64,000 nt of DNA from Eubacteriales bacterium (GTDB lineage Bacteria; Bacillota; Clostridia; Oscillospirales; CAG-272): the NCBI GenBank assembly GCA_045612105.1, contig JAZKYL010000147.1, positions 884 through 64,883 of the forward strand, in the 5' to 3' direction. Both the position numbers and the translations under genes were made by a program. Under the pieces are notes generated by a model. That model was given only the letters and a program-made list of their open reading frames with translations, had not been told where the DNA came from and searched no databases. Shown one piece after another: positions 42,220 to 44,804 of the stretch. How positions within the stretch are numbered: the stretch's first letter is position 1; every line of letters begins with the position of its first letter.

Positions 42220-42753
42220 TTAAGCCTCTGCTCTATTCAAAAGCGGCTCTACCATAAGTACCGTCGCCTCCGCAAGACTGTTAATGTCATAACTCGTCTC
42301 CTTCAAGAGATGATCCCTTACCACACTAACAAATCCGCCGATAGCAAATGAGAGCTTAACTCCGTCCTCTGCTTCCTTTACTCTTCCGTCATAATAACGG
42401 TGAAGCCTTTCTCCAAGCTTTGCGCAAAGTACGTCCTGCTTTCCTCTGAAAACTATTTTTAAATAAGACGCTTCTTTCTCCAGCGAACGCAAAAGCCCAA
42501 CAATATATGCCTTGGGATCGTCAAACATCTTATCTTTTTCAGAAAAGCCCGACATCACCTTATCTATGGCAAAATCGTCTATTTCATCCGACAGCTGCGC
42601 CGAATCGGCATAATGATTATAAAAAGTAGTCTTATTTATCATCGCTACCTCGCAGATATCCTTGACCTTTATTTTCTCAGGCATAAGCTTTGTCCTGAGA
42701 GTTAAAAAAGCCTCTTTGATCTGCTTTCTGGTCTTTACCATTCTAAGATCCAT
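42220..42753 (-). CDS. TetR family transcriptional regulator
   Basis: 177 aa with an N-terminal HTH (IKVKDICEVAMINKTTFYNHY). It is the first gene of the minus-strand lipid operon. Confidence 0.85.
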   Translation of the reverse strand: MDLRMVKTRKQIKEAFLTLRTKLMPEKIKVKDICEVAMINKTTFYNHYADSAQLSDEIDDFAIDKVMSGFSEKDKMFDDPKAYIVGLLRSLEKEASYLKIVFRGKQDVLCAKLGERLHRYYDGRVKEAEDGVKLSFAIGGFVSVVRDHLLKETSYDINSLAEATVLMVEPLLNRAEA

Positions 42754-42897
42754 AGCTTTACCTCACCTTTCATATATAATTTATGCAAAGATAATCAACT
42801 TTAGTTGTATAAGTATATTATAGTCGTTTTTTGTCGAATTGTCAACAAAGTCTAAACCGAATTTTTCCTAAATTAACACAGTTTAACTTCAGTTAAC

Positions 42898-42937
42898 AAA
42901 AAAATACGGGAAACACCGAAATGCTTCCCGTATTTTT
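42898..42937 (-). terminator. rho-independent terminator ending the cohesin operon (bidirectional shape)
   Basis: ATACGGGAA (42904-42912) pairs with TTCCCGTAT (42925-42933), flanked by an A7 run and a T5 run. Confidence 0.75.
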
Positions 42938-42949
42938 CAATTGATCAGA

Positions 42950-44092
42950 TTAAATATCCTTCTTTTTCTTAATAAAGGTCAATGCTCCAAGTAATACTAC
43001 CGAAAACAGTGCGCCAAAGCTTATGGAAGATCCGCAACCCCAGGATTTATCGGGATTCTTGTCGCTTTCAACTTCCGCCTTGGTGCTCTCTTCACTTGCG
43101 GAAGTGTCCTTGGCACTATCGGTTACATCCCCGATCGTAAGGTCGGTTGTATTCTCAATTCTATCCTCAGTTGTATCCTCGGTTGTGTCCTCGGTTCTAA
43201 CATCGGTCTTATCATCGCTTGCCTCTGTCACTGTAACAGTTTCCTCAACCTCATTCTTAGGCAAAGTCGTTTCCTCATCCTTTGAAGAATCATTGTTGTT
43301 CGAGTTGTCACCTGAAGAAGGGTCGTTGTTCGAGTTGTCGCCCGAAGGAGGGTTATTGTTTTCCTCATCTGAAGTGGATTCCGCTTCAGTAATAATTCCG
43401 CCTTCGGTATCCTCCGCAGCTTGAGTCTCATCCGTAATAACGTCAGTTTCCTTATCGGGATCAGTAACGCCACAGTCGGTTTCTGTTTCTGCTTTGTTGG
43501 TTGTGTCCTCCTCTGTACCTATAGCGACACCTTGAGATTCGGTCTCACTCTCAACAGTTTCTTCGCTTACGAATATTTCATCGGTCTCTGTTGTTACCAC
43601 GTCAGCCGTAGTTTCATCGGTCACAGACTCAATAGGACCGCCTAAAACGTTGATCTTTATAGGCTCAATATTTACAGTAACGTCTTCCAGCTTAGCATTG
43701 CAACATTCATAAACTTTTACTATAATAACATTCTCACCAAATTTTGCGTTTTCACCAATTCTGAAGGTAATAGTAACTAACGTTCCCGTGGCGGTTGAAT
43801 CGCTTACTGAATCCCAAAGAATATTCAATCCGACGGTTATATCTTTCTTTATAGTACCGTTCTTTACGTCAACCACCTCAAAATCATCCGTTGAAGGCAC
43901 ATTGATCCTCATACCGGCGAATCCGGGATTGCTTTCAACATTAAGAACGACCTCTACCAACTCTCCTCTCTCGCCCTCTGCATCCGACACGGTGATCGTC
44001 ATAACGTCAGACGCAGAAACTCCGACACAGAGTAAAGAGAAAACCATAAGAACCGTTACGGTTATTAATAAGATTTTTTTAATTGCAGTCAT
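42950..44092 (-). CDS. cohesin-domain anchoring protein (signal peptide, cohesin, T/E/D-rich linker, C-terminal GCGSS-TM-KKKK tail)
   Basis: 380 aa. The cohesin-like module is coded at about 43637-44011 (...VVLNVESNPGFAGMRINV...). There is no LPXTG and no SLH. The hydrophobic C-terminus is followed by KKKKDI. Confidence 0.8.
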   Translation of the reverse strand: MTAIKKILLITVTVLMVFSLLCVGVSASDVMTITVSDAEGERGELVEVVLNVESNPGFAGMRINVPSTDDFEVVDVKNGTIKKDITVGLNILWDSVSDSTATGTLVTITFRIGENAKFGENVIIVKVYECCNAKLEDVTVNIEPIKINVLGGPIESVTDETTADVVTTETDEIFVSEETVESETESQGVAIGTEEDTTNKAETETDCGVTDPDKETDVITDETQAAEDTEGGIITEAESTSDEENNNPPSGDNSNNDPSSGDNSNNNDSSKDEETTLPKNEVEETVTVTEASDDKTDVRTEDTTEDTTEDRIENTTDLTIGDVTDSAKDTSASEESTKAEVESDKNPDKSWGCGSSISFGALFSVVLLGALTFIKKKKDI

Positions 44093-44114: not shown

Positions 44115-44804
44115 TTAATTTTGCTTGCCTAACACTACCGAAGAATGTCCCGTTTCGTAATCATAATTAGCAAGATACTGACGGATAAGTATAAGGTCTT
44201 TACCATCAACTGAACCATCATCGTTTGCGTCAGAACCGTAGAGCTCGTCGGAAGAGTTGCCATTAGTCAAATACTCTCTGAGCTTGATAACGTCAAGTGT
44301 ATCGACATTATCGTCACCGTTTACGTCACCGTACATAGGCGCAAGAGGCTCTCCGAGCACTTTGATCTTTATAGGCTCAATGCTTATACTAACGGGATCC
44401 AACTCATCATTAAAACACTCAATAACTCTGATATTAATGGTGTTCTCGCCTGCCTGCGCGCGATCGCCGATCCTAAATGTAACAGTAAGTAATGTTCCCG
44501 TAGCGGTTGAATCACTTGCAGAATCCCAAAGAATATTCTTTCCGCTGGTCATCGTTTTCATGACCGTGCCGTTCTTTACCTCCACGACCTCAAAATCCTC
44601 AGTCTGAGACACGTTAATCATCAAAGCGCAGAATCCGGGATTGCTTTCAACATTAAGAACGACCTCTACCAACTCTCCTCTTTCGCCTTCAGCAACAGAT
44701 GTAGTAACCGTCATAACGTCAGACGCAGAGACTCCGACACAGAGTGAGGAAAAAATCATAAGAACCGTTACGGTTATTAATAAGATTCTTTTTATTGCAT
44801 TCAT
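44115..44804 (-). CDS. adaptor scaffoldin: signal peptide, cohesin, dockerin
   Basis: 229 aa. The cohesin is coded at about 44346-44723. The dockerin (44118-44336) has the loops DVNGDDNVDTLD and DANDDGSVDGKD. Confidence 0.85.
   Translation of the reverse strand: MNAIKRILLITVTVLMIFSSLCVGVSASDVMTVTTSVAEGERGELVEVVLNVESNPGFCALMINVSQTEDFEVVEVKNGTVMKTMTSGKNILWDSASDSTATGTLLTVTFRIGDRAQAGENTINIRVIECFNDELDPVSISIEPIKIKVLGEPLAPMYGDVNGDDNVDTLDVIKLREYLTNGNSSDELYGSDANDDGSVDGKDLILIRQYLANYDYETGHSSVVLGKQN

Follow-up and report, generated by a model that had tools for sequence, protein, structure and literature searches.

A conserved Gly-Cys C-terminal tail on a Clostridia cohesin protein, and a candidate CPBP protease and Lgt paralog for its processing

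To our knowledge, descriptions of C-terminal sorting signals of the Cys type (MYXO-, JDVT-, Synerg- and CGP-CTERM) have to date come from diderm bacteria and archaea, and a protease for such a signal was reportedly first demonstrated experimentally in 2025. In Ruminococcus flavefaciens, the scaffoldin ScaE is anchored by the LPXTG/sortase A route. For MYXO-CTERM, a two-step model has been proposed in which the invariant Cys is lipidated in an Lgt-like reaction and a CPBP protein, MrtX, then cleaves the signal in a Cys-dependent manner, with Lgt as the proposed, unproven lipidating enzyme (PMC11980579; Haft preprint 10.1101/2023.06.07.544157) and the leading candidate for that step (PMC11980579). 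The Haft preprint (10.1101/2023.06.07.544157) makes no mention of Firmicutes. Here, we analyzed a 64,000-nucleotide window (the whole stretch of DNA under study) from a contig of a Eubacteriales metagenome-assembled genome (MAG), in which a 380-residue protein, the anchor cohesin protein, ends in a tail with a Gly-Cys signature. We consider it probable that this tail is a Cys-type sorting signal that is lipidated by a dedicated Lgt paralog, denoted LgtL, and then cleaved by a CPBP protease of a clade denoted C-type, giving a lipid-tethered cohesin complex. In the literature, we found no description of an Lgt-CPBP sorting system or of an Lgt paralog in Clostridia.

The C-terminus of the protein, translated from the minus-strand open reading frame (ORF) at 42950..44092, reads ...NPDKSWGCGSSISFGALFSVVLLGALTFIKKKKDI. 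The original prediction had described residues W351-I380 (42953-43042) as a tripartite tail of WGCGSS, a hydrophobic helix and KKKKDI that lacks LPXTG and accompanies no SLH domain. This description was confirmed by the translation, by a Pfam scan and by the AlphaFold model, in which the predicted helix (359-377) directly follows a disordered stretch (156-358). The protein has no LPXTG, and the Pfam scan (E ≤ 0.1) detected neither an SLH domain nor any other. Conservation of the tail was followed in ten metagenomic homologs (P0002-P0011; alignment A1) and in the loci L001 and L002. Past the cohesin domain, G352 and C353 were the only invariant columns among the ten homologs, the linkers of which could not be aligned, and a Lys position of the basic cluster was ≥90% conserved both in A1 and in a tail profile, A2, built from 15 tails. 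The syntenic ortholog in L001, from a fecal Eubacteriales MAG, terminates in NGCTLSVSG...KKSK, and a distant cohesin protein in L002, from a roe-deer colon Clostridia MAG, terminates in DGCSGSF...RKKK. The Cys was kept in every tail read from the fetched loci and homologs, and the Gly was replaced in two of them, NCKS (L007) and NKCG (L103). The resulting consensus is [K/E]-x-G-C-[G/A]-[S/G], followed by 3-6 small residues, a transmembrane (TM) helix and three or four Lys/Arg residues.

The same tail is found on other proteins of the source MAG (G000; 2.96 Mb, 83% complete). Seven proteins with signal peptides and unrelated ectodomains, between 322 and 2402 residues long, terminate in [K/E]xGC[G/L][S/G], a TM segment and [K/R]3-4, each preceded by a Thr/Glu/Pro-rich linker, and no LPXTG-like tails were found among the MAG proteins. 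In these seven secreted proteins, G-C stands immediately before the C-terminal TM helix and basic tail; by chance, a G-C dipeptide would be expected at any one given position with a frequency of ≈0.0015. The tail match is well above chance level. All 37 genomes of the genus (37/37) contain the tail, in 3-13 copies detected by A2, with a best E-value of ≈1e-15 in this MAG, 3e-13 in the other genus genomes and 1e-3 in the weakest genome. The tail was lacking in single genomes that represented 24 further families of the order (best E no lower than 0.03). When A2 was run against 400 Clostridia genomes, G-C tails that could be verified by reading the sequences were found, besides this MAG, only in G386 (15 matches), G202 (four matches, with at least six tails in the loci read), G278 and G451 (one match each). 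A fifth weak match, in G433, was rejected; it did not cover the G-C portion of the profile, and the genome lacked a CPBP. The tail thus occurs in few gut and rumen Clostridia lineages, this genus among them. A plain uncleaved anchor had originally been the expectation should the homologs share no signature and the genome hold no other proteins with the same tail; the reverse was found on both counts, and the tail is a real, conserved, multi-copy, lineage-restricted signal and probably not a plain anchor.

We scanned the full protein and nine tails with hmmscan against NCBIfam release 20 at E ≤ 10. A resemblance to the MYXO-, Synerg- and Firmicu-CTERM classes had been suggested beforehand; this held for the layout of the tail but not for membership, as no such model reached its cutoff. 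Like MYXO-CTERM of Myxococcota (TIGR03901, with the protease model NF040914), the signal is tripartite: a G-C-G-type motif with an invariant Cys is followed by a TM helix and then by a basic cluster. Both signals recur many times in a genome, on surface proteins that are otherwise unrelated; in the tails described here, however, the basic cluster is Lys-rich rather than Arg-rich. The MYXO-CTERM domain model (TIGR03901) matched none of the nine tails, and the sole related match, to the tail end of NF045522, scored 11.6-12.7 bits (cutoff 150). With Synerg-CTERM of Synergistales (TIGR04564; MrtS, NF040589), the tails share a lineage-restricted distribution and a short signature, rich in Gly/Ser, whose single terminal Cys lies near a TM helix, often one with a mid-helix Pro. 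Of the catalogued signal models, Synerg-CTERM scored highest on one of the nine tails, that on contig C22, at a sub-cutoff 16.7 bits (cutoff 22.5), and it gave no match to the cohesin tail. The tails described here differ from it in the 3-6 small residues between the Cys and the helix, in the phylum of their host and in their candidate protease, a CPBP other than MrtS. There was no Firmicu-CTERM model among the NCBIfam matches for the nine tails. GlyGly-CTERM (TIGR03501) was passed by the C45 tail alone (19.2 bits, cutoff 15.5), on SGG, the TM segment and RRKR, and was failed by the cohesin tail, which reached 13.4 bits with LPXTG_anchor (TIGR01167; cutoff 15.9), at profile positions 10-33 only, covering the TM and basic part, and 9.5 bits with the cyano_PEP model (cutoff 21.6). 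Since no C-terminal sorting model consistently reached its cutoff across the nine tails, and the sub-threshold matches were mostly to the TM region, the signal is uncatalogued in NCBIfam release 20.

Some features of the tail proteins were noted in passing. Tandem arrays of 2-5 paralogous secreted proteins of 540-600 residues, all ending in GGCGSVVGFGA...FKKKED, were found in L003-L007, L009 and L011 (e.g., G029:C17:92-100 kb), with an ortholog in G000 (C8:159-2174). Single-copy tails in the genus read NCKS or GCKG. Within the genus, the arrays are flanked by a protein of ≈170 residues with four TM segments and by a TM-anchored protein of ≈260 residues that by eye resembles an SGNH/GDSL hydrolase; both were set aside as candidate enzymes because they are known only within the genus and are therefore inseparable from synteny. 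The 322-residue tail protein of G000 (C22:3874-8870) lies amid genes that by eye resemble a capsule/extracellular polysaccharide chain-length regulator and tyrosine-kinase pair, with further polysaccharide-related membrane proteins, also recognized by eye, nearby.

Sortase (PF04203), rhomboid (PF01694, rhombosortase) and exosortase/archaeosortase (PF09721) were not found in the 83%-complete MAG, and sortase, rhombosortase and exosortase were accordingly rejected as the processing enzyme. Together with the conserved signature, these absences support the view taken in the original prediction that the tail is a Cys-containing sorting signal handled by a non-sortase route, in which it would be cleaved. 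Sortase was absent from 35 of the 37 genus genomes and present in 22 of the 24 sister families, which is the opposite pattern to that of the tails. The sole two sortase matches in the genus (G001:C139:14690-15103 and G009:C43:3452-3823) come from MAGs with an estimated contamination of 6% and 4%, respectively, and may represent contaminant contigs or recent acquisitions.

The statement that the window holds no sorting-enzyme gene was borne out: the three CPBP (PF02517) genes encoded by the MAG are all on other contigs. None of the three reaches an Mrt cutoff or adjoins a tail gene, and the gene neighborhoods of the seven tail genes in the MAG have no common membrane enzyme. A first tree of 61 CPBPs contained several genus clades, of which two, the D-type (36/37 genomes) and the C-type (35/37), were near-universal in the genus and had only paralog-level matches outside it. 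The C-type was missing only from this MAG and from one 73%-complete genome. The C94-type was rejected because its orthologs occur in tail-negative families; the C87-type formed a genus-only clade in both trees, with no member from G386 or G202. The D-type CPBP (C84:8491-9546 in G000) is 340-370 residues long, has a long C-terminal extension and lies convergent with G-C-tail genes, <400 bp away, in G021 (L029, G021:C106) and G033 (L030, G033:C155). The absence of an ortholog from the tail-positive G386 and G202, which encode three and two CPBPs, respectively, none of them in the D-type clade, led us to discard it as the general enzyme.

A profile of one genus against the rest could not choose the C-type over the D-type, and we therefore extended the search to 400 genomes of the class Clostridia. 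In the enlarged CPBP tree, a single clade with a Shimodaira-Hasegawa-like approximate likelihood ratio (SH-aLRT) support of 99 united the six sampled C-types of the genus with one CPBP each from G386, G202, G278 and G451, and none of the 39 CPBPs from the 24 tail-negative families fell inside it. The C-type CPBP is ≈270 residues long, with the motifs EExxFR, FGxxHxxN and HxxxN/D intact. Across the 400 genomes, a C-type profile, A3, scored 328-382 bits in G386, G202, G278 and G451 and at best 99.9 bits in the ≈395 others. Class-wide, four of the five tail matches coincided with four of the four CPBP matches among ≈398 genomes (Fisher ≈5e-9, with phylogeny ignored). Among the genomes sampled, tails and the C-type CPBP are found together in four separate families and in no others. 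The proposed search for a co-occurring enzyme by phylogenetic profiling thus yielded a candidate, although not the rhombosortase, exosortase or sortase that had been envisaged, but a CPBP coupled to an Lgt paralog. With the Mrt models, the C-type CPBP scored 18-20 bits (NF040914 Mrt_core, cutoff 100), 23-31 bits (MrtJ, cutoff 75) and 16-18 bits (MrtS, cutoff 130); by analogy, it would work like an Mrt enzyme, yet it stands outside the curated Mrt models. In the protein database, the family accounts for at least 653 clusters, none with a name more specific than “CPBP family intramembrane metalloprotease”.

The gene for LgtL, a membrane protein of 260-288 residues, immediately precedes that of the C-type CPBP and abuts it or overlaps it by a few to ≈60 nt. 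In relatives of the MAG, the locus reads ftsK, LgtL, C-type CPBP and then a [FeFe]-hydrogenase-like gene. LgtL belongs to the LGT family (PF01790; 96.5-102.6 bits, gathering cutoff 24.9) but does not reach the equivalog level of authentic Lgt (63-71 bits, cutoff 118.9, for TIGR00544; 106-110 bits, cutoff 334, for NF000778). It carries the motif GR[LIV]GC[LF]xAGCC[HY]G where canonical Lgt has GRxGNxxNGE, and retains the YGGLIGG, PVQLFE and YGxWRFxIExxRxD motifs. The LgtL-CPBP pair was present in all nine genus genomes inspected, in G386, which represents a family outside this order (43% identity), and in five of six public contigs sampled via the C-type family. In three loci, a tail gene stands immediately upstream of the pair, with tails reading ...NKCGVTIAGG...KKKED (L103), ...DKGCASVMG...RKKD (L112) and ...SGCGATVLG...RKKD (L114). 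L112 and L114 are syntenic relatives, and the three substrate-LgtL-CPBP rows therefore represent two independent arrangements. LgtL is additional to canonical Lgt, which in the MAG is encoded on contig C153 and has GRWGNFFNGEAFG.

Two further short Lgt-like paralogs of 222 and 245 residues were noted in G000 (C4:1388-2056, minus strand, and C116:104494-105231, plus strand). Both carry the G-x-G-C-x3-G-C-C of LgtL, not the canonical GRxGN, and are distinct from the Lgt on C153. In one lineage, represented by L104 (G202:C35) and L113 (ENA ERZ27297542 contig), the C-type CPBP gene is uncoupled from any Lgt paralog and lies between a GyrI-like gene and an Exo_endo_phos gene (endonuclease/exonuclease/phosphatase family), followed by an HtrA-like protease.

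From these observations, a pathway can be proposed. The SPI-type signal peptide would direct Sec export of the protein and be removed, and the C-terminal helix would then retain the protein in the membrane in an N-out/C-in topology, with Cys353 at the outer leaflet. LgtL, as the coupling of its gene suggests, would modify the thiol of the Cys with a lipid, for which diacylglycerol is the most likely candidate. The C-type CPBP, presumably a CPBP/Rce1-like glutamic intramembrane protease with eight TM helices, would then remove the helix just past the lipidated Cys, a role suggested by its phylogenetic profile, its gene neighborhood and the analogy with MrtX. The mature cohesin would be held on the cell surface via its C-terminal lipid, with the ≈200-residue linker reaching across the wall, and would dock the dockerin-bearing adaptor and the enzymes encoded upstream. 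We infer both chemical steps, lipidation and cleavage, from comparative genomics.

The pathway would amount to a MYXO-CTERM-like system in a monoderm. It would share with MYXO-CTERM the CPBP/Rce1-like protease (a candidate in the present case) and the proposed order of lipidation before cleavage. Unlike in Myxococcota, there is no outer membrane and no type II secretion step in the monoderm Clostridia, and the protease is coupled to a dedicated Lgt paralog; no such paralog is named in the MYXO-CTERM studies, which leave the lipidating enzyme open (PMC11980579; Haft preprint 10.1101/2023.06.07.544157). More generally, LgtL may catalyze the lipidation of the invariant Cys in C-terminal sorting signals of the Cys type, a step still missing for MYXO-CTERM and related signals; we put this assignment forward tentatively, as one that could fall either way. 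As in the N-terminal lipoprotein pathway of Lgt and then LspA, an LGT-family enzyme would act before an intramembrane protease removes the adjacent helix, and the tail core G-C-[G/S]-[S/G] resembles the [G/A]-C-[G/S] of the lipobox. The topology, however, would be the mirror image, with the helix C-terminal of the Cys, the candidate protease is a CPBP, not LspA, and the Lgt paralog has GRxGCxxAGCC instead of GRxGNxxNGE. The tail also has the tripartite layout of the LPXTG signal of ScaE and the same role of tethering a cohesin-dockerin complex to a Gram-positive surface. It differs in having WGCGSS and not LPXTG, in its predicted attachment to a membrane lipid rather than to peptidoglycan and in a host in which, as in nearly all of its genus, sortase was not found.

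Several observations count against processing by LgtL and the C-type CPBP. In tblastn searches of the MAG, C-type CPBP, LgtL and the flanking ftsK ortholog were all not found; because ftsK is missing too, the enzyme locus is probably unassembled in this genome. The CPBP has no adjacent LgtL in the tail-positive G202, G278 and G451 or in contig L113. In LgtL, Cys replaces the canonical Asn and Glu of GRxGNxxNGE, and its chemistry may differ. S. aureus LnsB, a CPBP protein, is reported to act in a two-component lipoprotein N-acylation system, and given that role an Lgt-CPBP pair could serve N-terminal lipoproteins instead. Profile A3 contains the four high-scoring genomes, so that only the absence elsewhere is independent and clade membership rests on the tree. 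Within the order, the pattern is that of one genus against the rest, which many genus-specific genes, the D-type CPBP included, would fit equally, and the class-wide match depends on three additional families only.

One alternative is a plain, uncleaved type-I TM anchor, with the Gly-Cys serving helix capping, metal or thiol chemistry or oligomerization, and with LgtL-CPBP unrelated to it. Even unprocessed, such a tail would hold the protein in the membrane of a monoderm, and the absence of the LgtL and C-type CPBP genes from this MAG, as well as the restriction of the LPXTG_anchor match to the TM and basic part of the tail, would be as expected. We nevertheless regard it as unlikely, since it leaves unexplained a Cys that stays invariant, at a constant spacing from the helix, in unrelated proteins and distant families alike, the exact co-occurrence with one CPBP clade, the tail genes directly upstream of LgtL-CPBP and the replacement of sortase. 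A scheme in which LgtL or the housekeeping Lgt lipidates the Cys, but the helix is either kept or cut by another protease, such as the D-type CPBP, and the C-type has a different role, is likewise improbable. The D-type is encoded in this MAG and almost throughout the genus, sometimes beside tail genes, and a fraction of M. xanthus TraA is surface-exposed without MrtX (PMC11980579). Against a D-type enzyme stand the tail-positive genomes without a D-type ortholog, G386 and G202; the C-type is the only CPBP clade common to all tail-positive lineages. Finally, LgtL and the C-type CPBP might serve N-terminal lipoprotein maturation, as an alternative Lgt with an LnsB-like N-acylation activity, the association with G-C tails being coincidental. 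LgtL is a genuine LGT-family protein, as that explanation requires; we consider the explanation very unlikely all the same, because a canonical Lgt is already present, the proteins encoded beside LgtL-CPBP have SPI signal peptides without a lipobox in addition to their G-C tails, and the co-occurrence holds in four separate families and in no other of the ≈400 genomes.

If lipidation by LgtL followed by C-type CPBP cleavage is correct, C-terminal diacylglyceryl “mirror-image lipoproteins” would constitute a general, sortase-independent means of surface display in monoderm Clostridia, cohesin-dockerin complexes included. Cys-type sorting logic would then also operate in a lineage of Gram-positive gut bacteria whose genomes nearly all lack sortase. 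The proteins with G-C tails are currently annotated as hypothetical or as plain membrane proteins, and for uncultured Clostridia of the gut and rumen, the annotation of surface proteomes and of cellulosome-like complexes would change. The compact cassette of two or three genes (protease, Lgt paralog and sometimes substrate) appears well suited to the open question of lipidation.

The features of the anchor cohesin locus are listed in Table 1. The N-terminal domain (residues 30-150) was modeled as a beta-sandwich with an AlphaFold predicted local distance difference test (pLDDT) score of 94-98, and the top 50 Foldseek matches in the PDB were all cohesins (50/50; best E = 8e-10, target TM-score ≤ 0.79), including 2zf9, which is described as the cohesin of the cell-surface anchoring scaffoldin ScaE. 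The anchor protein had no match to PF00963 (Cohesin) with hmmscan at E ≤ 0.1, and the cohesin of the upstream adaptor, which is 68% identical, scored below the gathering cutoff of 24.1 bits. By its predicted fold, the domain is a cohesin, with weak support from sequence. The linker, of which neither the sequence nor the length is conserved in A1, presumably forms a wall-spanning stalk. The 229-residue adaptor upstream is a likely partner in the anchored complex, and the next gene beyond it also bears a dockerin (Pfam); with these two genes upstream, “anchor cohesin” is therefore a fair description.

Table 1. Coordinates of features at the anchor cohesin locus, numbered within the window.
Feature	Position	Strand	Basis or remark
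Anchor cohesin protein gene, 380 aa	42950..44092	(-)	ORF list; stop codon 42950-42952 included in range
Sec signal peptide, residues 1-27 (...VSA/SD), SPI type without lipobox	44012..44092	(-)	By eye; predicted helix 2-22
Cohesin domain (predicted), residues ≈30-150	43643..44005	(-)	AlphaFold and Foldseek
Disordered acidic linker, Thr/Asn/Asp/Glu-rich, residues ≈151-345	43058..43642	(-)	pLDDT <50 over 156-358
C-terminal sorting-like tail matched by profile A2	42956..43057	(-)	G000:C147:43839-43940; 57.3 bits, E = 5.7e-15
Signature Gly352-Cys353 inside W-G-C-G-S-S	43034..43039	(-)	Invariant in 10 homologs
Hydrophobic TM helix I357-I374, 18 aa	42971..43024	(-)	Sequence; AlphaFold helix 359-377
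Cytoplasmic basic cluster K375-K378 (KKKK), then D-I and stop	42959..42970	(-)	Sequence
Terminator-like hairpin, TACGGGAA-12 nt loop-TTCCCGTA, 8-bp stem, then T run	42897..42933	(-)	≈20 nt past cohesin stop; by eye
Cohesin and dockerin adaptor, 229 aa, upstream	44115..44804	(-)	Dockerin_1 38 bits, Cohesin 20.2 bits (Pfam); = P0003

The hairpin downstream of the cohesin gene was missed by a consensus scan because the scan was limited to loops of 8 nt. Beyond it, a perfect sigma-70 consensus (TTGACA-17-TATAAT, 12/12) is found on the minus strand at 42817-42845 of the window, upstream of an ORF at 42220-42753 on the same strand, which encodes a 177-residue protein that by eye resembles a small TetR-type regulator.

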